Virus record (IMG/VR): IMGVR_UViG_2698536355_000010
Length of the DNA: 39,062 nucleotides
Source of the DNA: a virus
Lineage: Duplodnaviria > Heunggongvirae > Uroviricota > Caudoviricetes
Strand: one strand, 5' to 3'
Positions 10,145 to 39,062 of this stretch are shown piece by piece; within the stretch, counting starts at the first letter, position 1, and each line of letters begins with the position of its first letter. Below the pieces are notes generated by a model. The model made no database searches, was not told the origin of the DNA, and was given only the letters and a program-made list of their open reading frames with translations. Made by a program: the position numbers and the translations under genes.

Positions 10145-10711
10145 TCAGGGAGATTCATTGCTCTTATTTGCCGGAAATTTTCTATAAATGGTAGAAACGC
10201 CTACATCAAAAATCAGTGCAATACGCAGTCTTGATTCTCCGGCCTCGAGTAAACGTCCAATCTGTGCCCACTGTTCGGTGGTCAACTTAGGACGGCGTCC
10301 ACCTACTCTGCCTTTAGCACGAGCTGCAGCCAGCCCTGCCCTGGTACGTTCAACTATCAGTTCGCGTTCCATTTCAGCCAGGGCACCCATGACATGAAAA
10401 AAGAAACGGCCCATTGGGGTACTGGTATCAATACTGTCAGTCAGGCTTCTGAAATTCACACCACGCTGGCGCAACTCTTCTATCAGCGTAACAAGATGCC
10501 GCATACTGCGCCCCAACCTGTCCAGCTTCCAGACAACCAGCGTGTCTCCTGCCGATAGTGTCCTGAGCAGTTTTTTCAGCCCCGGTCTGTCGGACTTAGT
10601 GCCACTGATTTTATCCTCAAAAATCCGCTCACATCCCGCGCAGTTCAGTGCATTACGTTGCAAATCGGTGTTCTGGTCATTTGTTGACACGCGTACATAG
10701 CCAATAAGCAT
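10145..10711 (-). CDS. serine-recombinase DNA invertase (Gin/Hin/Pin/Cin family)
   Basis: N-terminus MLIGYVRVSTNDQNTDLQRNAL with catalytic Ser motif and C-terminal HTH; start set at third ATG (10711) which has GGGGGA 5 nt upstream. Confidence 0.9.
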   Translation of the reverse strand: MLIGYVRVSTNDQNTDLQRNALNCAGCERIFEDKISGTKSDRPGLKKLLRTLSAGDTLVVWKLDRLGRSMRHLVTLIEELRQRGVNFRSLTDSIDTSTPMGRFFFHVMGALAEMERELIVERTRAGLAAARAKGRVGGRRPKLTTEQWAQIGRLLEAGESRLRIALIFDVGVSTIYRKFPANKSNESP

Positions 10712-10738
10712 GATCATCCCCCTGAATAAAAACCGGAG

Positions 10739-11248
10739 ATGATGCCAGTTAGCCGTAATCTCTGCATTTTCTTAAACGTTGGTTTGGGAGAAACGATAAA
10801 TAAAGCCTCCGGAGCTATGCAGAAATCGGCCAATGGATCTGATATTTCTGATGTATCAGCCTTCCGAAATGCGCTCCAGTTAGGGACCGCCGCAACACGA
10901 GATGTTGGAGCAGATAATGCCTCGAAGTTACTGGATTTAGACAGCTTCAGGTCAATGATGTCAGGGAATGGCTACATCTACATTCCATGCATTGCGACGA
11001 CAGGAAACCCGGTGAAACTTATGTTGCAGTGGGGAACGGTGGCAACACAAAAGGGAGCTGATGCTGGATATGCCTTACCATTTGCTTTTCCCTATGCAGG
11101 CTTATTTGCGACCGGAAACCGTGGAACATCTGGCTACAATGCCGCGATGAATGTGCGTATTGCCAGCAGAACGCATATCAGTATTCAGAACTGGTCGCCA
11201 TCCGGAGAGGGCACCGAAGATTGTTGTTTTATCGCGCTGGGGTATTAA
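10739..11248 (+). CDS. alternative tail-fibre C-terminal segment (Sv'-like), expressed only after inversion
   Basis: ORF on opposite strand to H ending ...CCFIALGY (H ends ...HFEAIGY); shares A-x-x-RDVG block with H; likely lacks its own start and is read only when fused to the H constant region after inversion. Confidence 0.65.
   Translation: MMPVSRNLCIFLNVGLGETINKASGAMQKSANGSDISDVSAFRNALQLGTAATRDVGADNASKLLDLDSFRSMMSGNGYIYIPCIATTGNPVKLMLQWGTVATQKGADAGYALPFAFPYAGLFATGNRGTSGYNAAMNVRIASRTHISIQNWSPSGEGTEDCCFIALGY
10767..10792. repeat. candidate invertase crossover site (gix/hix-like), right
   Basis: ttttcttaaacg-tt-ggtttgggagaa fits TTnTCnAAAACC-nn-GGTTTTnGAnAA half-site pattern at 17 of 20 defined positions; 56 bp upstream of invertase start. 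Confidence 0.5.
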
Positions 11249-11250
11249 GA

Positions 11251-11661
11251 ATGAATAAATTTTATAAAGGCTCTTTCTATCCGAAAGCACTAAAAGGGGT
11301 ATATATCAGCGCCGGTTCATGGCCTGAAAATGGCGTTGATGTTGATGATGAAACAATGGCAATTTACACAGGCGTAGCGCCACAAGGCAAAACGCTGGGG
11401 GCTGATAAAAATGGTAATCCTGCGTGGATTGATATCCCGCCACTCTCCGCTGAACAACAGATTATTCAGGCTGAACAGAAAAGAACAGTATTGCGTTCTA
11501 TGGCTGATAAGGAAATAGTCTGGAGACAGGATGCTTTTGATGCGGAAATCGCGACGGCAGAAGAAACCGCCGCGTTATCTGAATGGAAAAAATACCGGGT
11601 CTTGCTGATGCGCGTTGATACAGCAAAACCCGTATGGCCTGTCAATCCGCAGGATATTTAA
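11251..11661 (+). CDS. tail fibre assembly protein (Tfa'/U'-like)
   Basis: Starts MNKFYKGSFYP; C-terminus EWKKYRVLLMRVDTAKPVWPVNP is the conserved Tfa C-terminal motif. Confidence 0.8.
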   Translation: MNKFYKGSFYPKALKGVYISAGSWPENGVDVDDETMAIYTGVAPQGKTLGADKNGNPAWIDIPPLSAEQQIIQAEQKRTVLRSMADKEIVWRQDAFDAEIATAEETAALSEWKKYRVLLMRVDTAKPVWPVNPQDI

Positions 11662-14865: not shown

Positions 14866-15211
14866 TCTCTGCTCCTGTTGATACGGAAAGGGAAACAGGC
14901 ACACCGTTATTACGCCGCCCGGTCAGCTCCACCACCATTGAACCGTCAAAATTGCTGTTAATGGTGATGGAATCCAGCGTCAGCCGTGGCTCCCAGCGAC
15001 TCAGCGCCACATACACTGCCGACATGACCTGCAGGCGTAATGCCGGATTTTGTGGCTGGTCTATCAGTGCCGACAGCAGAGAACCATATTCCCGACGGGC
15101 AATACGGCTACCCTGCGGTGTCAGCAGAATGTCCCGCACCGACTGGCGCAGATGGTCAATATCAGTAATGACTTTACCGCTGGTATTGTTCATCCCGATA
15201 TAAAGCGTCAT
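14852..15211 (-). CDS. W: baseplate wedge protein W (gp25-like)
   Basis: 119-aa ORF MTLYIGMN...; P2 gpW-like. Confidence 0.8.
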   Translation of the reverse strand: MTLYIGMNNTSGKVITDIDHLRQSVRDILLTPQGSRIARREYGSLLSALIDQPQNPALRLQVMSAVYVALSRWEPRLTLDSITINSNFDGSMVVELTGRRNNGVPVSLSVSTGAENGSD

Positions 15212-15786
15212 ACCGGGCCTCCGGTTGTATCGCCGCCTTTCAGGACGCCAGTATGCTCATGGTCGTCAACCACGACTCCGTTGGAACTCATCGCGCCGCC
15301 GCCTTGGGTGACGCCACCATTGATCACCACCTCGCTGTTGATGCGCGTGGTGTCAGCCTCCACCACAAACTGACCGGTTTTGAGGGTGATATTGTCTGCC
15401 GCCTCGATCACCATGGATTTGATACCCCGGACGTACCATCGCCCGGTGGCGGGTTCGTACTCAAACCTGCCGCCGTCCGGGTACTCCGTCACGCAGCCGT
15501 CCACGGAATCCGACGGAGGCGCAAACTGACTGGAGTAGATGGCGGGCAGCACAAAAGCGGTTTCCAGATTGCCCCCCATGCTCAGCACCACCACCTGCTC
15601 ATCCGGCGACGGACACCACCATGTACGGGCACCACCGGCACGCAGCGTCAGCCAGTTAATCCAGTTGGTTTCGAGGTCGCCTGTTTTCACCCGGCAAAGC
15701 CAGTTTTCCCGATCCACTTCGGTCACGGTGCCGGTGCGGATCAGGTTGGTGATAAGGCGCATGATTTCGGTTAGTTGTGCGTTCAT
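15208..15786 (-). CDS. V: baseplate spike/assembly protein V
   Basis: P2 gpV-like; start placed at ATG 15786 (MNAQLTEIMRLITNLIRTG) by alignment to remembered P2 V N-terminus; ATG 15762 is an alternative. Confidence 0.8.
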   Translation of the reverse strand: MNAQLTEIMRLITNLIRTGTVTEVDRENWLCRVKTGDLETNWINWLTLRAGGARTWWCPSPDEQVVVLSMGGNLETAFVLPAIYSSQFAPPSDSVDGCVTEYPDGGRFEYEPATGRWYVRGIKSMVIEAADNITLKTGQFVVEADTTRINSEVVINGGVTQGGGAMSSNGVVVDDHEHTGVLKGGDTTGGPV

Positions 15787-15832
15787 ATGGAAATCATTGC
15801 CTATCGTAAACGACAGTGATATTAAAGAGGTT

Positions 15833-15850
15833 TGTGCAGTCACCCACACA
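15833..15850 (-). promoter_or_regulatory. candidate Ogr/B-dependent late promoter element (P_V)
   Basis: tgtgcagtcacccacaca, TGT-N12-ACA with the same extended pattern and orientation as the P_F and P_O dyads; centre only about 55 bp from V ATG. Confidence 0.4.
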
Positions 15851-15884
15851 AGATGATCATCAAATCTGTTTTGGAAGGATTCTT

Positions 15885-17405
15885 ATGAGTTGCTTAGATC
15901 AATTATCTTCAGAAAATAAAAAATCCCTATTATCATCAGTATTTTCAAAGAGCTATTTCCTCTGGATTGGCTCTGGATTTTCGTACAATTTCGGATATCC
16001 AAGTTGGGGGGCCGTACTTGAAGAAATAGCAAAGCGAATAGAGTACCCGTTAAAATTAGATTCATCACAGCCTCTGCGTGCTGCAGAATTACTTTTAAGT
16101 TATGCGATGAGTGAATCATCAATAAAAGAATATGATTTCAATTCGCTCGTTGCCAGGACGATTATAGATTTAAAAACAGAAACTAAAGAACCAAGATGGC
16201 TTAAAAGATTCAAACTCTTCGCTCCCAATACAATTGTAACAACTAACTGGGATGAGGTGCTTGAAGAAACATTTGAGCATATGGCAAATAAAATCATCAG
16301 AAAGGATCCATTCCCTAAAGTATCAACAAAAGGGAAAAATATCTTCAAAATTCATGGTGACGTCGGAAAACCTGATTCGATTGTTATAACACAAAGTCAA
16401 TACTTTTCTTTTCAGCGCGAAGACACTTATCTTAGCCGAAAAATTTACACATTGTTTTCAGAAATGTCCCCTATATTCATCGGTTACAGCTTAACCGACC
16501 CAAATATAGGTTTCCTTTATGAAGAAGCATTAGCACATCTGCATGGAAAAAACCCGCCAGCATTCATGGTAATTCACCCAGATGCAAACCCTTTAACTTT
16601 CGAGGAGACAAAGTATTTATTTAAATCAAAAAATATACACCTGATTAAAGCAACCATAGAAGACTTCCTTGCAGATTTATCTCAGGAATATAAATCCTTT
16701 AAAGAATCACCTCATCGTTTCAACCTTGAGCACGAACATGTTCTTCCCAAAATAAAAACTGTAATGGATACCGTTACGAAAGGAAAAAAAAATAAAAAAG
16801 CGGAACTAGAAGCCTTATGTCCTCAAAGAGCTGCAAGCTGGGCCGTGACAAAAGCCATAATTGACATTCTAAAGAAACCAATATTGTACATTCAATTCGG
16901 CGGAAAACTTCTTTCTCCAGACAATATTATCCCCTACAGAGAGTTCGATGCTTTAGTTAATGTAGTCATAACACTTAGCAACAATCACGGTTACCCTGAC
17001 GAGCTTATACGTCAAGATTTTCATGCTTCTGTTGTCAAAATGTGCATCGAAACAGAAGGGGTTTGGGACTTCAACTATGCTGAAGTACCTTTCTCTAACA
17101 TTTTAAGAATAAGCCCTAGCCCCGGCACTGAAAGTTTCGACAAAAAAATATCCCATATAATAGAAATTATGCGATGGTCGTCCCCATCTGAAATAGGGAA
17201 GTGCTGGGCAACATGGAATGTATTTAAAGAAAAACAAGATTGGATTAGCCACAGTGATATTGTTGGCATTCTTTCGAAACTTGAAACCGATGGTGACTTA
17301 GAATACCAACCCAGAGATAAAAAATGGCTAAACATCCTGAAAAAATGCCCTCACGCAACGGCTGCAGATATCAAGAGAATTGATACTCTGATAACCCCAG
17401 CTTAG
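15885..17405 (+). CDS. SIR2-like (DHS-like NAD-binding fold) protein with uncharacterised C-terminal domain
   Basis: Motifs FLWIGSGFS (GxGxS), IVTTNWDEVLEE (TTNYD-type), KIHGD, IFIGYSLTDPNI; ATG 15885 preceded by GGAAGGA; gene strongly AT-rich versus flanks. Confidence 0.8.
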   Translation: MSCLDQLSSENKKSLLSSVFSKSYFLWIGSGFSYNFGYPSWGAVLEEIAKRIEYPLKLDSSQPLRAAELLLSYAMSESSIKEYDFNSLVARTIIDLKTETKEPRWLKRFKLFAPNTIVTTNWDEVLEETFEHMANKIIRKDPFPKVSTKGKNIFKIHGDVGKPDSIVITQSQYFSFQREDTYLSRKIYTLFSEMSPIFIGYSLTDPNIGFLYEEALAHLHGKNPPAFMVIHPDANPLTFEETKYLFKSKNIHLIKATIEDFLADLSQEYKSFKESPHRFNLEHEHVLPKIKTVMDTVTKGKKNKKAELEALCPQRAASWAVTKAIIDILKKPILYIQFGGKLLSPDNIIPYREFDALVNVVITLSNNHGYPDELIRQDFHASVVKMCIETEGVWDFNYAEVPFSNILRISPSPGTESFDKKISHIIEIMRWSSPSEIGKCWATWNVFKEKQDWISHSDIVGILSKLETDGDLEYQPRDKKWLNILKKCPHATAADIKRIDTLITPA

Positions 17406-17408
17406 AAT

Positions 17409-17861
17409 TTAGTTATCTTTTGTCATCCACCTCAAGAGAGTGTTTAGAATTATCTGGTTACTCTCTTGGGTTTGTCCCAGCAATCTGCGAGCTGGGTATT
17501 TAATACTTTTGCTTCTTTTACCTATCCGCTCTCTCAATCCGTAGTGGTGAACACGGGCAATGCGCTGTACCTTGCCTTCAAACTGCACGCTGGCAGAGTC
17601 GGCGCTGGCGGAAGTTTTCAGGTATTTTGTGGTGCGCAGCTTTGCAAACATCTGACGTTTGATACGGCCTTTTTTACTGCGTGCTGTTACCCGTCGCGGT
17701 TCATAACTGCTGCCATCTGGATTGCGCTGCATTCTGATATTTTGCTGCTGTGTCCGGCGTAGTTCCTGCGCCAGCTGGCGCATCATGCGGCTTCTTGCGG
17801 CTGGCTCCAGATTCGCCAGCAAGGCACTCAGCCAGTCGTCCACTTTCTGCAGTTCAGCCAC
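17409..17861 (-). CDS. S: tail completion protein S
   Basis: 150-aa ORF in P2 gpS position; its stop lies 3 bp from the convergent SIR2-like stop. Confidence 0.8.
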   Translation of the reverse strand: MAELQKVDDWLSALLANLEPAARSRMMRQLAQELRRTQQQNIRMQRNPDGSSYEPRRVTARSKKGRIKRQMFAKLRTTKYLKTSASADSASVQFEGKVQRIARVHHYGLRERIGKRSKSIKYPARRLLGQTQESNQIILNTLLRWMTKDN

Positions 17862-26210: not shown

Positions 26211-26876
26211 TCAAAGCTCTGAGTCTACAGGCTCATGATAAAGGTTTACAGGGTAGTGTATAACCTCATAATTAAGTTGACTAACAGTGTGAGTATGTTG
26301 ACTGTAAAAAACCAATGGGTTTCTCTTACAAGGAGTTATCGAGATAGACTTACAAGCATGAATTCTTGGAGCCGATTTATCTAAATGAGCCTTCCACTTA
26401 GTCATCATTTCATTACATTTTTTATTACGCGTATATATAATTAACCCACCACTTGCACTGTCTACAGTACCAGTGCTATATCGCTCAGTGAGTTGTGCAT
26501 ACCCTTTAAATAAATAACCATATGAACCAGTGTGTTTTTTGGCCTCGCCATGCCAAGTAAATCTATTCAACTTTATTGTTATATCACAATGACCTCGTTG
26601 ATTATTTTCATGATATGCTTCAATTCCCATATCTTTATTTTTTATATTTGCCAGTAAAATTAAAGTAAGCTGATCTTCTGTTAAATCAAAATTCAATTTA
26701 TTTGAATTTTCCTCAATTGCCTGTACAGCAGAATCAAGCTCAATTCTTACAAACTGTTTGACGTTCTCATACGACTGGAGAGCAAACCTAACGCGAGTAA
26801 TAGAAGCATTGATACGCTGAAGAAAAATATCATTATCAATTTCAGCTAAACTCATTGGTGCAGACATTTTTAACAT
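26211..26876 (-). CDS. hypothetical protein, cargo operon gene 3 (possible PD-(D/E)xK-like motif)
   Basis: 221 aa; ATG overlaps upstream stop (ATGA); HCDITIK...(14)...GEAKK resembles a D...ExK motif; AT-rich. Confidence 0.6.
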   Translation of the reverse strand: MLKMSAPMSLAEIDNDIFLQRINASITRVRFALQSYENVKQFVRIELDSAVQAIEENSNKLNFDLTEDQLTLILLANIKNKDMGIEAYHENNQRGHCDITIKLNRFTWHGEAKKHTGSYGYLFKGYAQLTERYSTGTVDSASGGLIIYTRNKKCNEMMTKWKAHLDKSAPRIHACKSISITPCKRNPLVFYSQHTHTVSQLNYEVIHYPVNLYHEPVDSEL

Positions 26877-27310
26877 CAGACAATATCCTTTAATTTAGAT
26901 TCATCTAATGTAAAAAAAGGAAAGACGAAGGACTTATAGTCATACATAATCTCCCCTGTAAATGGGTTTACTAAAGATTGATTAATTTCAGCCTCTATAA
27001 CATCTTCTAACTCAAGCTCAATAGGATCATGAAAATCATCAATAAACCAATAATTGAGTTTTAAAAACTCAACCTTTGGACTACAAAGAATTTGTATAGC
27101 TGGGTACACAACCTGCTCATATGCTTCAGGTTGTATACATCCTTTATAACCATTAACGATACTAAATAAATCTTTATAACTCAGAGCTATATTAGGCGAT
27201 TTCTTTGCTCTCACACCAATTTCATCATACAAATAGCAAGCTAGCGCCCCTATATCAGGGCGCTCTGCACATATTTCTTTGATGATCTGGGGCATATCAC
27301 CATCCTTCAT
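26876..27310 (-). CDS. hypothetical acidic protein, cargo operon gene 2
   Basis: 144 aa from ATG 27310 with GGAG 6 nt upstream; tightly packed between genes 1 and 3. Confidence 0.55.
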   Translation of the reverse strand: MKDGDMPQIIKEICAERPDIGALACYLYDEIGVRAKKSPNIALSYKDLFSIVNGYKGCIQPEAYEQVVYPAIQILCSPKVEFLKLNYWFIDDFHDPIELELEDVIEAEINQSLVNPFTGEIMYDYKSFVFPFFTLDESKLKDIV

Positions 27311-27322
27311 TGCTGACTCCAA

Positions 27323-28429
27323 TTATAATATCAGCTTTGTGAGGGTTTCGAAATCATCTTTGGATATACATTTGCTTAATATAGCATAATTGACAGGAGA
27401 GCACCCACTACCACCTAAATGTCTGCGTAATGTTCCTGGAATGATAAGCTCTACACTATCCGCCAATTGCAATTTTGGATTATTCCTATCTACTCTAATT
27501 CCAATACGATATAAACCAATATTACCTACAGCTTTAATGCCCTCTTTATTAAACAGATCATCACGCAAGTCTTTCTTAGCCACATTTTTCTTTTCCTTAT
27601 GAGTGGTTCCCTCATAAGTTAAAAATGACAAATCGAACACCTTATAACTTAAACTTGAATATGGCATTACATTTTGCTTGAAAATTGGCTCAATTAATGG
27701 ATAAAAATCCTTTTCCGATGAATTAAATTGATAACCTGCGCAATTATATAACTCACGAATAAAATTCGTTTTCGCAAAAACGATATTATCACCAACAACA
27801 TTACCATTAGTATCAATTAATACATGGATTTTATTTGAAGCTGAATCTAATATACACACATCAAAACACTGACGTTTTTCTTTTCTCTTCGCAATGATTT
27901 CATCAAACTGTTTGTATGCTGCTAACTTTGACGGAGGGACTTTCTCTCTTACAACCAGCTCCCTGATAGATGAAAATACCAAAATAGACTGAGTATTTTG
28001 CTTAGAGTAATTAACAAGCTCAAGTTGATTTTTAATAGCATGCTGTAATTGAACATCATCAACAATCGTTTCGACTAATGATGTTGGTTGCTTCATCATA
28101 TTCCATTGGAGAGCATATCTATCATCAAGTAATTTAATTACTTGACTATCTACAGACAAACTAAATATTGCTTTTTCACCATAAACAACCTGCCCAAAGA
28201 CTAAATCATTTACACTTGCAATGATTTTGTCAAATTTTTGCCTATCTTTCTTTTTAAAATCAATGAGGCTTTCTAGTATTTTGTCGTTTGTTGCTTCACG
28301 CCCTCTACCTGTAGGTAGCCCTAAAGAAGCAATAATTGGTCTGGCGATATGCCACGTAAAACGTTCAGTTAAGGCTAAGATCGACTTTAACTCAAAGTCA
28401 GAAAGCACCACTGGGACACCACTTGTCAT
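27323..28429 (-). CDS. hypothetical protein, cargo operon gene 1
   Basis: 368 aa from ATG 28429 with AGGTG upstream; no nucleotide-binding or other motif recognised by eye; AT-rich. Confidence 0.6.
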   Translation of the reverse strand: MTSGVPVVLSDFELKSILALTERFTWHIARPIIASLGLPTGRGREATNDKILESLIDFKKKDRQKFDKIIASVNDLVFGQVVYGEKAIFSLSVDSQVIKLLDDRYALQWNMMKQPTSLVETIVDDVQLQHAIKNQLELVNYSKQNTQSILVFSSIRELVVREKVPPSKLAAYKQFDEIIAKRKEKRQCFDVCILDSASNKIHVLIDTNGNVVGDNIVFAKTNFIRELYNCAGYQFNSSEKDFYPLIEPIFKQNVMPYSSLSYKVFDLSFLTYEGTTHKEKKNVAKKDLRDDLFNKEGIKAVGNIGLYRIGIRVDRNNPKLQLADSVELIIPGTLRRHLGGSGCSPVNYAILSKCISKDDFETLTKLIL

Positions 28430-28589
28430 AACATGCACCTAGTCAACCCAAAAGCAATTGAAAATCGCTCTTGTCTTAATTTTTTCCATCAATATCTAAC
28501 AAATTACCTTAATGTTGAAAAAGTTTGCAAGCCATTTGCGTCTAAAAAGTGACTTGACTCAATGTGTTACAAAGCTTAGCGAGCGCGCG

Positions 28590-28608
28590 CTCGTATCCCC
28601 GCCACGCC
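28590..28608 (-). other. cos-like cohesive-end site
   Basis: Minus strand reads GGCGTGGCGGGGATACGAG followed by CGCGCGCT, closely resembling the remembered P2/186 cos (GGCG[A/T]GGCGGGGAAAGCA...GCGCGCT). Confidence 0.5.
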
Positions 28609-28647
28609 TGCCCGCTTTATGTAGTGGTTTTCATGCACCTGCATGAC

Positions 28648-28676
28648 ATAAGCAAAAGCCCGCCAGCTCTGGCGGG
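28648..28676 (-). terminator. rho-independent terminator downstream of HNH gene
   Basis: Stem gcccgccag/ctggcgggc (28657..28676) followed on minus strand by TTTTGCTT. Confidence 0.5.
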
Positions 28677-28790
28677 CATCAGCAAAAACGATCCTCAAAC
28701 GATCATGCGATTTCATGCGACATAGACATGCGTTGGCAAAAATGTACGAAATACTCAGCTTACAGGAAATGGTCTTTTTCCAACCTCCAG

Positions 28791-29510
28791 TTAGCCAAAG
28801 CAGAAACCAATATTGCAATTTGAAACTCCACAGTTGTGAAATTGATGTGGACCGACTCTTAGCTTGTGTTCGTCTCCTACAATCCGAGTCCCCTTAACCA
28901 ACATATCTAATCTTTCCACAATCAATCTTTCAGGCGCATCAACTTTAATAATTAAACGAGGACCTTTCCTTTTTTCTATAATAGTTATTCTAGGACCAAC
29001 AACCTGAACATCCCAATGCCTTGCACTACAAACCCACTCATTCTTAATTAATTCAAGATTAACAATACCTTGACTATCGTAAAATTTACCCGAAATAAGA
29101 AAAGCATTATTTTCTTTTTCAATGGTTAACAATGGCTCATTTTGAAACATTATTGGTACAGTACAGGATTCAAACGTCGCACCACCAAATATTATTGTTG
29201 GATGCCTATCAGAAAAGTCCAATATATCGGCCACATTCCCTTTTTGTAAGGCTGCAGGAGATTCCATTGCTTTAATTATTTTCTCTTTAGAGTAAAGACG
29301 TTTCGTTACTTTCGCATGGCACGTAGGACAAAGTAGTGCTATTGCATTTGGAGAGTGCTCCTTTGCATCAGCGTATGTGGGAATTACATGCTCATACTCA
29401 ACAATGGGAGAAGCACAAACAACGCAACCAAAGCCACAGCGCTGCCTTACCTCCAGTTTTACAGGTTCAGGAATTGTTCTAGATAACCCATGCTTGTTAA
29501 TAGTTGTCAT
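28791..29510 (-). CDS. HNH-endonuclease-domain protein
   Basis: N-terminal CGFGCVVC...EYEHVIP...N...LLCPTCH (HNH pattern); C-terminal 160 aa unassigned; AT-rich; AAGGTAAGG before ATG. Confidence 0.7.
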   Translation of the reverse strand: MTTINKHGLSRTIPEPVKLEVRQRCGFGCVVCASPIVEYEHVIPTYADAKEHSPNAIALLCPTCHAKVTKRLYSKEKIIKAMESPAALQKGNVADILDFSDRHPTIIFGGATFESCTVPIMFQNEPLLTIEKENNAFLISGKFYDSQGIVNLELIKNEWVCSARHWDVQVVGPRITIIEKRKGPRLIIKVDAPERLIVERLDMLVKGTRIVGDEHKLRVGPHQFHNCGVSNCNIGFCFG

Positions 29511-29632
29511 AACCTTACCTTAAAACTTCGAGAAACCTTTTATATATTGATACTATATCAACTAACGCCTCGCACAGCTCGTTGTTCAACCTTGCTGACG
29601 CCAGAAGCAAGTTCAGACGCCAGCAACGTTTC

Positions 29633-29866
29633 TTAATGCAGCCAGCTGTCGTCTTCCCACACCTTCTGCATAATTTTCATCACTTGCTTCCTTTCTTCGT
29701 CCAGTTGCAGTCCGGTCAGTTCCACACCGTTAGAGCTACCTTTGCGGATACGAATTACCGTTTTGGGATACAGGGGGCGCAGATTACGGTAAAGCTCGGA
29801 TTCAAGGGCGTCTAGGGTAGACTGGCTAATCTTCTGCTCTTTATCGATCATTATTTCAATGCGCAT
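29633..29866 (-). CDS. DinI-like protein
   Basis: MRIEIMIDKEQKISQSTLDALESELYRNL...WEDDSW resembles DinI (MRIEVTIAK...ALAGEL...TWESADDW); GAGGTGA 6 nt upstream of ATG 29866. Confidence 0.7.
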   Translation of the reverse strand: MRIEIMIDKEQKISQSTLDALESELYRNLRPLYPKTVIRIRKGSSNGVELTGLQLDEERKQVMKIMQKVWEDDSWLH

Positions 29867-29876
29867 AAAAGTCACC

Positions 29877-30065
29877 TCAACTGATGACATCCATTGAGCG
29901 GTTGTATTCGTGGGTTCTGATTTTTGCCATGAGTTCATCTGTTAGTTCAGAAACCCACTGCAAAGCCAGCCCCTTCTCTTCATCACTACACTCACTAGCC
30001 GCTACAAGCTTAAGAAAAAAATCAATGCGCTGGAGCTTCAAAGACTCCAAAAAATAGTCCTGCAT
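29877..30065 (-). CDS. small hypothetical protein, first gene of SOS-box operon
   Basis: 62 aa from ATG 30065 with AGGAGG 4 nt upstream; stop lies inside the dinI-like RBS. Confidence 0.5.
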   Translation of the reverse strand: MQDYFLESLKLQRIDFFLKLVAASECSDEEKGLALQWVSELTDELMAKIRTHEYNRSMDVIS

Positions 30066-30108
30066 CTTTCCTCCTATGACACCACAAGAAATACTGTATA
30101 CATAACCA

Positions 30109-30124
30109 CTGTTTATAATTACAG
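30109..30124 (-). promoter_or_regulatory. LexA (SOS) box
   Basis: aCTGTttataattACAGta, a CTGT-N8-ACAG palindrome with AT-rich spacer, about 45 bp upstream of the small gene start. Confidence 0.6.
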
Positions 30125-30218
30125 TATATAATAATCTTACTGATGTAAAACGTTTTTTTACGTTCATCAGCCTGATATGCCTGGTATTATTAAGAGCACG
30201 GATTGTTAACCCGCGTGA

Positions 30219-35633: not shown

Positions 35634-36230
35634 ATGTCAACATCAAAGTACCCAAGTGAGATCAAAATAAATCCCAATAAAGGTGGTAAGGCTGCGATTG
35701 AGCGATTAGTCGAAGCCTATGGCTTTACGACACGACAGGCTTTAGCTGATCACTTGGAAGTATCAAAAAGCACACTAGCGAACAGGTATTTGCGGGATAC
35801 ATTTCCTGCTGACTGGATAATCCAATGTGCTCTTGAAACAGGAACCTCCCTCAAATGGTTAACTACCGGACAAGGCCTTAAGCAAAGCTCGCTGACAGCA
35901 GCTACAGAAGAGCTTGTTAAGTTTCGCCTTGCCGCAGGCAAAATGATTGAAGACGGTTCATATGTCTTCGATTCATCATTTCTTCCTGCAAACCTTTCAT
36001 CACCAATTGTTGTTCAGGATGGACTCGTCACATACATTTGTGATCAAAAATTTTCTGAAGTACTTGATGGAAACTGGTTAATCAATATCGACGGAACCTA
36101 TTCCATTCGAAAAATCACAAGGCTTCCTAAAGGAAGGATTAAAATTACAACAGCAGAGAATAGCTTTGAATGTGCATTTTCTGATATTGAAGTGGTTGCT
36201 TGTATAAGAAGTACAATAGTCTCGAATTAA
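35634..36230 (+). CDS. cI: CI immunity repressor (phage 186 type)
   Basis: 198-aa ORF with N-terminal HTH (TTRQALADHLEVSKSTLANR); divergent from apl. Confidence 0.8.
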   Translation: MSTSKYPSEIKINPNKGGKAAIERLVEAYGFTTRQALADHLEVSKSTLANRYLRDTFPADWIIQCALETGTSLKWLTTGQGLKQSSLTAATEELVKFRLAAGKMIEDGSYVFDSSFLPANLSSPIVVQDGLVTYICDQKFSEVLDGNWLINIDGTYSIRKITRLPKGRIKITTAENSFECAFSDIEVVACIRSTIVSN

Positions 36231-36250: not shown

Positions 36251-37927
36251 ATGAATTCATTTGCCATCGTTATACTCTTATTAGCATTTCTCGCCCCTGT
36301 TCTAGCTGTAATATTATTTAAACAAAGTAAAAAACACAAAGCGGCTATAGATAACCTGACAGCTAACAACATAGCCCTTTCTAACCAACTGATTGAAAAT
36401 CAAGAAAAACTAGCACAGACCGTACGAGAATTATCAGAGCTTGAAGGGCGAGCAGCACCATTGTGGCAATACGAAGAATTGCACAGCGCAGTAATGGATG
36501 CAGAGAATAAGATAAAAAATGCGGACTCAATAGCCAAGCAAAAAATAGATGAAGCCCAAATTAAGGCGGCTAAAACAGTAAACGAAGCAAATTATCAAGC
36601 TCAGATGACAATAAGCAACGCTAATAGCGAAGCTATAGCAATCACCAAAGACGCTCGCGATGCACGCCTGAAAGCCAAAGAACGTCTTGATAATGCTAAT
36701 AATAAAGCAAATGAGCTAATCTCAAATGCTAATGACAATGCAGTAAAAATTATTTCTGATGCAGAAGAAAGAGCAAAGGAGATTGCTGGTTCAGCATATG
36801 AAGCTAAAGAGTTTGCAGAAAAATATGAAGCAGTTGCAAAATCAATGAAAAATAAAATTGAAGGTTATGGTGATGAATGGATCATCCCTAACCGTAGTGT
36901 ACTTGATGAGCTGGCAGAAAATTATGAATTTACAGATGCAGGCAAGGAATTACAAAAAGCCAGAGAGTTAACCAAATCATTAATAAAAACTAATAAAGCT
37001 GCTTCGTGTGATTATGTTGAGCAAAACAGGCGTAATACTGCCATAAACTTTGTTTTGGATGCCTTCAATGGAAGAGTTGACAGTATTTTATCAAAAGTCA
37101 AACACAACAATTTTGGAAAACTTTCCCAAGAAATAAAAGATGCATTTCAACTAGTAAATTACAATGGCTCTGCCTTTAGGTCCGCAAAAATAAGTGACAT
37201 CTATCTTCAGGCAAGACTCAACGAGCTAAAATGGGGTGTAGCAGTTAATGAAATTATGCTCGAAGAAAAAGAAGAGCAAAGAAGGATTAAAGAACAGCTT
37301 CGTGAAGAGGAAAGAGCTCGTAGAGAATATGAAAAAGCGATAAAAGAAGCTGAAAAAGAAGAAAAAGCTATTCAGCAAGCTATAAATAAAGCAACGAAAG
37401 AACTTATGCTTGCAAATGAAGAACAACGCTTAGCTTTAGAGCAAAAAATAGCTGAACTACAGTTAAAATATGAAGAAGCTGAAGCTAAAAATCAACGAGC
37501 TATTTCTATGGCTCAACAAACCAGATCAGGCCACGTCTATATCATTAGTAATATTGGTTCATTTGGCGAAGATGTATATAAAATTGGAATGACACGCCGC
37601 CTTGAACCACTTGATCGTGTTCGTGAACTCGGAGATGCTAGTGTTCCTTTTTCGTTCGATGTTCATGCGATGATTTATAGTGATGATGCACCATCATTAG
37701 AAAACCATCTGCATAAAGTTTTCAACGAAAAGCAGGTCAATAAAATTAACTCACGAAAAGAGTTTTTTAACGTAAATTTAAAAGAAATCAAATCAGTTAT
37801 TGAAGACATGAACATCAACGCCCACTGGACAATGTTTGCAGAGGCGAAAGAATATAGAGAGTCTCTAGCTATTGAGCAGGAGCGCAAAGCAGCCACTTCC
37901 GCCAACGATGAACTACATGTTGCTTAG
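36251..37927 (+). CDS. membrane-anchored coiled-coil protein with C-terminal T5orf172/GIY-YIG-like domain
   Basis: N-terminal TM helix (FAIVILLLAFLAPVLAVILF), roughly 400 aa A/E/K/N-rich coiled coil, C-terminus VYIISNIGSFGEDVYKIGMTRR...PFSFDV...LENHLHKVF...EFF; AT-rich; AGGA before ATG. Confidence 0.75.
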   Translation: MNSFAIVILLLAFLAPVLAVILFKQSKKHKAAIDNLTANNIALSNQLIENQEKLAQTVRELSELEGRAAPLWQYEELHSAVMDAENKIKNADSIAKQKIDEAQIKAAKTVNEANYQAQMTISNANSEAIAITKDARDARLKAKERLDNANNKANELISNANDNAVKIISDAEERAKEIAGSAYEAKEFAEKYEAVAKSMKNKIEGYGDEWIIPNRSVLDELAENYEFTDAGKELQKARELTKSLIKTNKAASCDYVEQNRRNTAINFVLDAFNGRVDSILSKVKHNNFGKLSQEIKDAFQLVNYNGSAFRSAKISDIYLQARLNELKWGVAVNEIMLEEKEEQRRIKEQLREEERARREYEKAIKEAEKEEKAIQQAINKATKELMLANEEQRLALEQKIAELQLKYEEAEAKNQRAISMAQQTRSGHVYIISNIGSFGEDVYKIGMTRRLEPLDRVRELGDASVPFSFDVHAMIYSDDAPSLENHLHKVFNEKQVNKINSRKEFFNVNLKEIKSVIEDMNINAHWTMFAEAKEYRESLAIEQERKAATSANDELHVA

Positions 37928-38009: not shown

Positions 38010-39062
38010 ATGGCAGTACGAAAACTAACCACAGGGAAATGGCTTTGCGAATGTTACCCCGCCGGACGAAGTGGGCGTCGTGTGCGTAAACAATTCGCTA
38101 CCAAAGGCGAAGCACTGGCTTTTGAGCGCCACACGATGGAAGAAACCGAAGCAAAGCCCTGGCTGGGTGAATCAGTGGATCGTCGAACACTGAAAGACGT
38201 GGTTGAGCTATGGTTCAAACTACATGGTAAATCTCTGACAGCTGGGCAGCATGTCTATGACAAATTGCTGTTGATGGTTGACGCTCTGGGCAATCCTCTT
38301 GCAACCGATCTCACCTCTAAAATGTTTGCCCACTATCGAGATAAACGCCTGACAGGCGAGATCTACTTCAGCGAGAAATGGAAGAAAGGAGCAAGCCCGG
38401 TCACCATTAACCTGGAGCAAAGCTATCTAAGTAGTGTTTTTAGCGAACTATCCCGTCTGGGCGAATGGTCGTATCCGAACCCACTGGAGAACATGCGAAA
38501 ATTCACCATCGCAGAAAAAGAGATGGCATGGCTTACCCATGAGCAGATTGTTGAATTGCTGGCTGATTGCAAACGTCAGGACCCAATTCTGGCACTGGTA
38601 GTTAAGATATGCTTAAGCACAGGCGCACGCTGGCGTGAAGCCGTAAATCTTACCCGCTCACAGGTGACCAAATACCGAATTACCTTTGTCAGAACGAAGG
38701 GGAAGAAAAACAGAAGCATCCCTATCAGTAAAGAGCTTTACGAAGAGATCATGGCGCTTGATGGGTTCAATTTCTTCACAGACTGCTATTTTCAATTTTT
38801 ATCCGTGATGGAAAAAACGTCTATCGTGCTCCCTCGCGGTCAACTCACACACGTTCTGCGCCATACGTTTGCGGCGCACTTCATGATGTCGGGTGGAAAC
38901 ATTCTGGCCTTACAAAAAATTCTCGGACACCACGATATAAAAATGACTATGCGTTACGCACATCTGGCACCGGATCATCTAGAAACGGCGCTCCGTTTCA
39001 ATCCTCTGGCAACGCTGCCAAGTGGCGACAAAGTGGCGGCAGCGGTTGGCATTACCCCGTAA
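38010..39062 (+). CDS. int: tyrosine integrase
   Basis: 350 aa; LSTGARWREA, HVLRHTFA and MRYAHL blocks match P2-family Int; stop at the window edge. Confidence 0.9.
   Translation: MAVRKLTTGKWLCECYPAGRSGRRVRKQFATKGEALAFERHTMEETEAKPWLGESVDRRTLKDVVELWFKLHGKSLTAGQHVYDKLLLMVDALGNPLATDLTSKMFAHYRDKRLTGEIYFSEKWKKGASPVTINLEQSYLSSVFSELSRLGEWSYPNPLENMRKFTIAEKEMAWLTHEQIVELLADCKRQDPILALVVKICLSTGARWREAVNLTRSQVTKYRITFVRTKGKKNRSIPISKELYEEIMALDGFNFFTDCYFQFLSVMEKTSIVLPRGQLTHVLRHTFAAHFMMSGGNILALQKILGHHDIKMTMRYAHLAPDHLETALRFNPLATLPSGDKVAAAVGITP

Follow-up and report, generated by a model that had tools for sequence, protein, structure and literature searches.

We analysed the virus record IMGVR_UViG_2698536355_000010 of IMG/VR, a 39,062-nucleotide (nt) stretch of DNA to which we refer as the window. 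The host prophage belongs to the P2 family and is Fels-2/SopEPhi-like. Between its late genes V and S, on the opposite strand, lies a gene for a 506-residue SIR2-family protein. We found that this gene is new cargo in a long-known variable slot, the orf30 locus of P2, that the slot is an active defence hotspot in Fels-2/SopEPhi-like phages, and that the SIR2 gene itself is probably an anti-phage defence gene. The gene and the elements of its product are as follows.

15885-17405, plus strand: SIR2-family gene, 506 codons plus stop codon; the product is identical to WP_042050682.1, named 'SIR2 family protein' by the Prokaryotic Genome Annotation Pipeline (PGAP)
15885-16691, plus strand: N-terminal SIR2 (Rossmann-type) domain, about residues 1-269, from Pfam SIR2_2, the KomC alignment and Foldseek
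15969-15983, plus strand: nicotinamide adenine dinucleotide (NAD) loop GSGFS, residues 29-33
16245-16247, plus strand: putative catalytic Asn121, from the KomC alignment and invariance among homologues
16251-16253, plus strand: putative catalytic Asp123, on the same two grounds
16353-16355, plus strand: putative catalytic His157, likewise
16692-17402, plus strand: C-terminal all-helical solenoid domain, residues 270-506 (237 residues)
17175-17216, plus strand: invariant motif of the C-terminal domain, W431-S432...G438-x-C440-W441-x-T443-W444; W453 and W481 are also invariant

The open reading frame (ORF) of the gene spans 15816-17405 on the plus strand, and translation from the ATG at 15885 gives the 506 residues. 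This ATG is the true start because a GGAAGGA ribosome-binding site (15874-15880) lies just 5' of it, all homologues share the N-terminus MSC(L/I)(D/E)QL in the alignment, and the PGAP start of WP_042050682.1, called on an E. coli chromosome, falls on the same codon. A longer start at the GTG at 15816 was rejected, since it would cross the dyad of the late promoter pV and the homologues begin at the ATG. The gene has a G+C content of 0.37, against 0.55-0.58 in its flanks; a scan along the window gave 0.37-0.40 across 16001-17500 and 0.53-0.59 in the neighbouring late genes.

The N-terminal domain carries GSGFS at residues 29-33, TTNWDEVLEE at 119-128, KIHGD at 155-159 and FIGYSLTD at 198-205. 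It matches Pfam SIR2_2 (PF13289) with E = 3.4e-26 and 92.5 bits, the cut-off being 24.5, over residues 116-254 and profile positions 2-141 of 141. SIR2_2 was the sole Pfam report at E ≤ 1; the classical SIR2 family (PF02146, the zinc-ribbon deacylases) was not matched, and NCBIfam gave no match to the protein. Matches in PHROGs were confined to families of unknown function. The SIR2-type models of PADLOC that match it are PDC-S25, ThsA1, LmuA and Dsr1, and among proteins of solved structure the defence NADases KomC and ThsA come closest in sequence. Across 32 aligned homologues, GSGFS, T119-T120-N121-W122-D123, K155-I156-H157-G158 and G200-Y201-S202-L203-x-D205-P206-N207 are invariant. Aligned to KomC, TTNWD stands opposite TTNYD, so that N121 corresponds to the KomC Asn, and KIHGD stands opposite KFHGD, so that H157 corresponds to KomC H146, the residue mutated in PDB entry 9xvc. 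The equivalents of N121 and H157 are N112 and H152 in ThsA and N133 and H171 in DSR2 (PMC11263360). An AlphaFold2 model of the whole protein reached a predicted local distance difference test (pLDDT) score of 89.4, and its top Foldseek matches were DSR2 (E = 8.9e-11), ThsA and KomC. Judged from its sequence, the protein is a genuine member of the SIR2_2 family whose predicted catalytic set is intact.

Residues 270-506 were modelled alone with a pLDDT of 91.7 as about 13 helices in a HEAT/ARM-like fold. Foldseek returned nothing significant for the isolated domain, the best matches (E = 0.11) being armadillo and Sel1 repeats. When 1.84 billion representative proteins were searched with a profile of the domain, 18 matches came up. 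Fifteen of these had E ≤ 1e-10, and they are SIR2-fused family proteins of about 500-523 residues or shorter pieces of such proteins; the three weakest matches are marginal and partial. Because nothing but SIR2-fused proteins or their pieces was retrieved at E ≤ 1e-10, the C-terminal domain is specific to this SIR2 family and is never joined to another effector.

The original prediction had described a 506-residue SIR2-like protein encoded between S and V on the opposite strand, with the same four motifs and an unassigned C-terminal domain. The ORF, the strand and the flanks all agree with it. It had allowed that the motifs might fail to match SIR2 profiles in a formal search, which the SIR2_2 match above its cut-off score answers, and the C-terminal domain, now delimited at 237 residues, is indeed unassigned.

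Homologues and genomic contexts

The window protein is identical to WP_042050682.1 and 100% identical to P0001, whose cluster holds 96 member sequences. Full-length relatives form about 58 clusters, all from Gammaproteobacteria, all of about 505 residues and 35-82% identical, and across this range more than 60 positions are invariant over both domains. In complete E. coli genomes the SIR2 insertion is present in 7 of 5426, at 99.8-99.9% identity; in most of the remaining matching E. coli genomes, about 970, S and V are adjacent. Among the INPHARED phages the gene was found neither at the DNA level nor as a close protein, and the protein matches there were confined to SIR2 proteins of Gram-positive phages at 25-37% identity.

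Two kinds of altered allele were also found. One is a 307-residue truncated allele (P0006; 99% identity, 14 member sequences). The other is the locus of E. coli NZ_AP027829.1 (hit H41), which is 2 base pairs (bp) longer and carries an extra annotated 'hypothetical protein'. Both suggest inactivation by frameshift. Frameshifted and truncated alleles are typical of costly abortive-infection genes.

We examined ten genomic contexts of the gene, the window included, for a possible partner. In P2-like prophages of E. coli, of two Enterobacter lineages (76% and 66% identity) and of Pectobacterium (49%), it occupies the S-V slot and has the same orientation. The Serratia homologue is found next to a fragment of gpA, within a P2-like remnant located at the ybjL site. 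In Vibrio alginolyticus (CP082313.1; L007) a 52%-identical homologue is a single-gene cassette of the chromosomal integron, bounded by 126-nt repeats at L007 7859-7984 and 9512-9637, and the chromosomes of Pseudomonas syringae, Aeromonas and Halopseudomonas carry a homologue as a lone gene. No neighbour gene is conserved across the ten contexts, and genes for TIR, HerA, Argonaute and KomA/KomB proteins were found in none of them. The absence of a conserved partner in ten contexts, one of them a single-gene integron cassette, argues that the SIR2 protein is autonomous and would work alone. That no TIR, HerA or Argonaute partner lies nearby had been part of the original prediction; the neighbours are V and S alone, and the same absence extends to the nine other contexts.

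Some of these contexts have features of their own. The Vibrio integron is a long array of 126-nt repeats whose cassettes near the homologue include a PhdYeFM/ParE toxin-antitoxin pair and acetyltransferases (L007:6000-11000). In the Pectobacterium versatile prophage (L009:9558-9809), S is called at 83 residues and the region between V and the SIR2 gene measures 218 bp, against 98 bp in the window; this prophage may be defective. In the window itself the prophage, judged by gene order and ORF lengths, abuts ybjL, the gene of an aspartate:alanine antiporter (935-2620), as in E. coli 20Y000092. The SIR2-bearing Serratia remnant (L093:9768-11965) adjoins ybjL too, which suggests an attachment site common to genera.

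The S-V junction and its cargo

The surroundings of the SIR2 gene contain the following features.

15208-15786, minus strand: gene V (baseplate spike), the conserved left flank of the slot
15787-15884, no strand: divergent control region from the V start to the SIR2 start, 98 bp
15797-15825, plus strand: putative sigma-70 promoter of the SIR2 gene (TTGCCT, 17-nt spacer, TATTAA, extended -10 TG), read by eye
15832-15849, minus strand: TGT-N12-ACA dyad, 46 nt upstream of the V start, matching the activator (Ogr-type) element of the late promoter pV
17409-17861, minus strand: gene S (tail completion), matching Pfam Phage_tail_S, which flanks the slot on the right and closes the preceding late operon
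17409-17533, minus strand: cassette-specific low-G+C 3' end of gene S, ending at about 17533 and not alignable with the S genes of empty sites
17429-17471, plus strand: stem-loop followed by UUUGU, 24 nt past the SIR2 stop codon and inside the S 3' end (-23.8 kcal/mol, z = -2.2, from RNA folding)

In P2 (NC_001895) the nonessential gene orf30, whose product is 260 residues long as translated here, lies between S and V on the opposite strand. It is placed between the terminator of the O operon and the annotated activator-binding site of pV, and the V transcript starts at the V start codon. The SIR2 gene agrees with P2 orf30 in lying past the final O-operon gene and ahead of the pV activator site, in its antiparallel orientation, in its low G+C content and in being dispensable. 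The two differ in their products, as P2 Orf30 is unrelated to SIR2 (phrog_2407, no Pfam or PADLOC match), and in their 3' boundary: in P2 a bidirectional hairpin terminator separates S from orf30, whereas in the window S and the SIR2 gene converge with their stop codons 3 nt apart.

The locus has been described before as variable. The TO region, the Z/fun region and orf30 were listed as the three loci where P2-like phages commonly hold non-P2 genes (Lynch et al. 2010, PMC3091744), and the R18C genome paper reported another ORF at the orf30 position (PMC6823313). Among reports on defence hotspots, Rousset 2022 described old/tin only, Vassallo 2022 added Z/fun and Egorov 2024 added a CI-proximal hotspot; a 2026 preprint speaks of hotspots 'within the late genes' and 'downstream of GpL' and does not name the S-V junction. 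The original prediction was mistaken on two counts here. It took S and V to be adjacent in P2, where orf30 separates them, and it did not regard the junction as a known cargo hotspot, in spite of the 2010 list and of the occupancy reported below. The position of the SIR2 gene is thus not anomalous; in position, deviant G+C content and absence from sister phages, the gene has each of the features of orf30-slot cargo.

The original prediction had also proposed a survey of S-V junctions for alternative cargo. We carried it out on 80 IMG/VR loci chosen for a V protein with 91% or more identity to that of the window, 76 of them with both S and V. The slot is empty, with a 68-bp junction, in 41 of the 76 and occupied in 35 (46%), with 541-2229 bp between S and V. 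The inserts comprise about 24 cassette types of one or two genes each, all with a G+C content of 0.33-0.40, and 20 of the 24 types are oriented against the late genes (binomial p = 0.0008). With PADLOC we found Septu PtuA/PtuB, PARIS AriA/AriB and an NsnA/PD-T4-2_A-like gene, the partner of which is a HEPN protein by Pfam; further matches were to PDC-S15, PDC-S31 (two variants), PDC-S49, PDC-S59 and a peptidase_U41-like protein. The SIR2 gene of the window recurs at one locus (L012). Another (L058:3512-5000, UViG_2924376464_000003) holds a second SIR2 protein of 405 residues, encoded on the same strand as the late genes and 23% identical to the window protein in the SIR2 domain only, with LmuA and ThsA as best PADLOC matches. 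Fels-2/SopEPhi-like phages thus have an active defence hotspot in the orf30 slot.

About half of the roughly 24 cassette types matched no defence model. Their proteins include ones of 420 residues (L021), 567 (L075), 283 and 303 (L022 and L088), 251 (L062), 254 (L023) and 175 (L041). A family of small multi-pass membrane proteins of 165-187 residues recurs in the slot (L020, L057, L089). Since the published surveys of P2 hotspots considered here concentrated on the TO (old/tin) and Z/fun loci, the slot is a cheap and well-delimited source of new one- or two-gene defence candidates.

Given that 41 of 76 junctions are empty and that so few E. coli genomes have the gene, the SIR2 gene is dispensable. 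It is foreign cargo and not a structural component of the virion; a structural role was rejected because most sister phages lack the gene, and the same close relatives without any insert speak against the original concern that the protein might be a conserved structural component of the lineage.

The cassette extends beyond the cargo gene on both sides. On the V side, the geometry of the dyad agrees with that of the annotated pV activator site of P2, and 76 of 77 related loci have a dyad 46-48 nt upstream of V; the 46 nt between dyad and V are AT-rich and vary by cassette. The candidate SIR2 promoter overlaps the pV core on the other strand, and its elements are kept upstream of the 76%- and 66%-identical Enterobacter homologues. 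On the S side, a comparison of 74 loci showed that the final 20-40 residues of gpS change with the type of cargo, and empty junctions have nearly one C-terminus. The variable C-terminus keeps its length and an RRLLG...L..WL pattern, and the S protein of the window is still a full-length Phage_tail_S protein by Pfam. Inside S, the stem-loop at 17429-17471 may end the SIR2 transcript. Hence the exchanged module consists of the S 3' end, the cargo and the pV region, and includes part of the essential gene S. As the S 3' end and the pV region travel with the cassette, we conclude that cargo is swapped by recombination within S and at the V start; these cassettes show cargo swapping between phages by homologous recombination in essential flanking genes. 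Together with the defence richness of the slot, this is a more generally useful result than the SIR2 gene itself.

A more speculative reading of this arrangement, which we hold to be doubtful, is that the slot is a purpose-built, self-silencing defence socket that is switched off in the late phase of the prophage's own development. The cassette-borne pV region would place the cargo promoter back-to-back over pV, and the cargo would converge on the last gene of the O operon without a spacer. Ogr-driven firing of pV in the late phase, together with read-through from S, would then silence the cargo by promoter occlusion and antisense transcription. If true, such a socket would let a phage safely carry abortive-infection effectors, among them the compact DSR2-like SIR2 protein of the window, that its own virion proteins might trigger.

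The prophage has other low-G+C or variable regions. A 558-residue protein is encoded at 36251-37927 on the plus strand, in an island of G+C content 0.35-0.38 that separates the CI repressor gene (35634-36230) from the integrase gene (38010-39062); the protein contains DUF4041 and T5orf172/MUG113 domains and matches PADLOC PD-Lambda-1 with E = 2e-120, and this match makes it a second defence gene of the prophage, in a CI/int-proximal hotspot. From the portal gene to the replication gene, at the position of the TO (old/tin) hotspot, lies an island of G+C content 0.31-0.45 (26211-30167, minus strand). There, consecutive genes for 221, 148 and 371 residues have no Pfam or PADLOC match and are a candidate uncharacterised system; they are followed by genes for an HNH-domain protein (28791-29510) and a DinI-like protein (29633-29938). 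At 10145-11661, a minus-strand ORF of 190 residues takes the position of the 'recombinase family protein' annotated in the matching E. coli prophage, and short tail-fibre-like ORFs follow it on the opposite strand. The arrangement resembles an invertible tail-fibre segment within the variable region on the Z/fun side.

Function of the SIR2 protein

We consider it likely that the SIR2 gene is lysogen-expressed, single-protein defence cargo (a 'moron') in the orf30 slot, encoding a sensor-gated NADase that acts by abortive infection. We favour this reading because of the SIR2 identity of the protein, its catalytic residues, the conserved two-domain architecture, the lack of a partner, the dispensability of the gene and the presence of defence systems in the same slot. 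In the lysogen, a sigma-70 promoter belonging to the gene would drive its transcription against the direction of the late operons. The resting protein would be inactive, and we propose, from the predicted HEAT/ARM-like fold, that the C-terminal solenoid is the sensor or regulatory module. By analogy with DSR2, whose helical region binds tail tube protein, the solenoid would most likely bind a protein of the infecting phage. Sensing would free the SIR2 domain, and the pocket of Asn121, Asp123 and His157 would hydrolyse NAD+, as in ThsA, DSR2 and KomC, so that depletion of NAD+ aborts the infection.

Several points weigh against this reading. The proposed sensor role draws on fold class; DSR2 is absent from the Foldseek matches of the isolated C-terminal domain, and on this ground a specific kinship of the domain to the DSR2 sensor was rejected. 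The C-terminal domain could mediate oligomerisation instead. A consensus scan of the control region returned nothing convincing, the candidate promoter matching 8 of 12 positions, and a simple terminator scan did not call the stem-loop at 17429-17471. No curated defence model spans the whole protein, as the PDC-S25 match covers profile positions 128-327 of 517 and the ThsA models cover the SIR2 half only. In the literature on WP_042050682.1, PDC-S25 and SIR2 NADases of P2 we found no study of this SIR2 family. Finally, certain SIR2_2 proteins could act as ADP-ribosyltransferases or deacylases instead of NADases.

The alternative that survives best is a sirtuin that modifies proteins, either as deacylase or as ADP-ribosyltransferase, and serves as a lysogenic-conversion factor by acting on a host or phage protein, with neither NAD+ depletion nor abortive infection. 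A helical solenoid is a typical substrate-recruiting module, and some database names for relatives of the protein read 'SIR2 family NAD-dependent protein deacylase'. These names are automatic, however, and the match is to SIR2_2, a defence-type clade, and not to the classical Sir2 deacylases. The nearest solved relatives are all defence-system NADases or FAM118B, and the slot is dominated by defence systems. We regard a sirtuin of this kind as unlikely.

The ThsA models, which are among the best matches in both sequence and fold, raise a second alternative, an orphan ThsA-like effector that answers to a signal nucleotide, for example a cyclic ADP-ribose isomer made by a TIR protein elsewhere in the host, with the C-terminal domain as the ligand pocket. 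The invariant Trp- and Cys-rich motif could line a small-molecule pocket, and according to a 2026 preprint, a lone-ThsA 'minimised Thoeris' has been tested in P4 satellites. Against this, the ThsA matches do not reach beyond the SIR2 domain (profile positions 18-237 of 478), the all-helical solenoid of the C-terminal domain differs from the alpha/beta fold of SLOG/STALD, a TIR gene is adjacent in none of the ten contexts, and the single-gene integron cassette argues for autonomy. We think an orphan ThsA-like effector very improbable.

Less probable still is that the gene serves the phage itself, in counter-defence or in the lytic cycle, for instance by destroying NAD-derived immune signals or by tuning late host metabolism. 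Its place in the middle of the late-gene cluster, beside pV, would fit such a role. Yet the gene is antiparallel to the late operons, so that late transcription would oppose it, homologues exist outside phages as an integron cassette and as lone chromosomal genes, and most sister phages do without it. Least probable of all is inert or decaying cargo with no current function, to which the truncated 307-residue allele, the longer NZ_AP027829.1 locus and the rarity of the gene in E. coli might point, since the window copy is full length and identical to the majority allele and the invariant positions over both domains require purifying selection. All four alternatives have less support than the defence reading.

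Comparison with known SIR2 defence systems

The window protein falls outside Thoeris, DSR2, SIR2-HerA, SPARSA and Kongming, matches PDC-S25 over part of the profile, and is best regarded as a probable single-protein SIR2 defence variant. SIR2-HerA (Nezha), SPARSA (SIR2-APAZ/pAgo) and Kongming (KomABC) were rejected, as the SIR2 gene stands singly between V and S and their obligatory partners were not found in any context. KomC of Kongming is the best sequence match among solved structures (E = 1e-20), and its H146 is the counterpart of the predicted catalytic His; however, KomC is a 264-residue protein that consists of the SIR2 domain only and works with KomA and KomB, whereas the window protein has an extra domain and no partners. 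ThsA of Thoeris has a SIR2 domain close to that of the window protein in both sequence and fold, and membership was rejected here because the window protein has neither the SLOG/STALD ligand-binding domain nor a ThsB (TIR) partner. Both KomC and ThsA assemble into filaments.

The PADLOC candidate PDC-S25 is the best PADLOC match (E = 8.9e-29) and, like the window gene, a single-gene candidate, with 517-528 profile positions. The match is limited to the part of the profile noted above, so that the C-terminal halves differ, and PDC-S25 is itself only a candidate.

In architecture the closest system is DSR2 of Bacillus subtilis, the best Foldseek match of the full model. It too is a single gene that encodes an N-terminal SIR2 domain followed by an all-helical repeat region, and its catalytic Asn-x-Asp...His pocket is also present in the window protein (PMC11263360). 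Unlike the window protein, with its 506 residues and one 237-residue solenoid, DSR2 has about 1005 residues, with helix-turn-helix, helix-bundle, six-HEAT-repeat and C-terminal domains. There is no sequence similarity between the two outside the SIR2 domain; PADLOC gave no Dsr2 match, and its Dsr1 matches were weak and confined to the SIR2 part. The window protein resembles DSR2 in architecture and is not a member of the DSR2 family. If it is protective, it would rank with the smallest single-protein systems that combine a sensor with SIR2, being roughly half as large as DSR2, and its proposed sensor domain, which has no sequence kinship to those described, would make it a convenient model for the gating of a SIR2 NADase by helical repeats.

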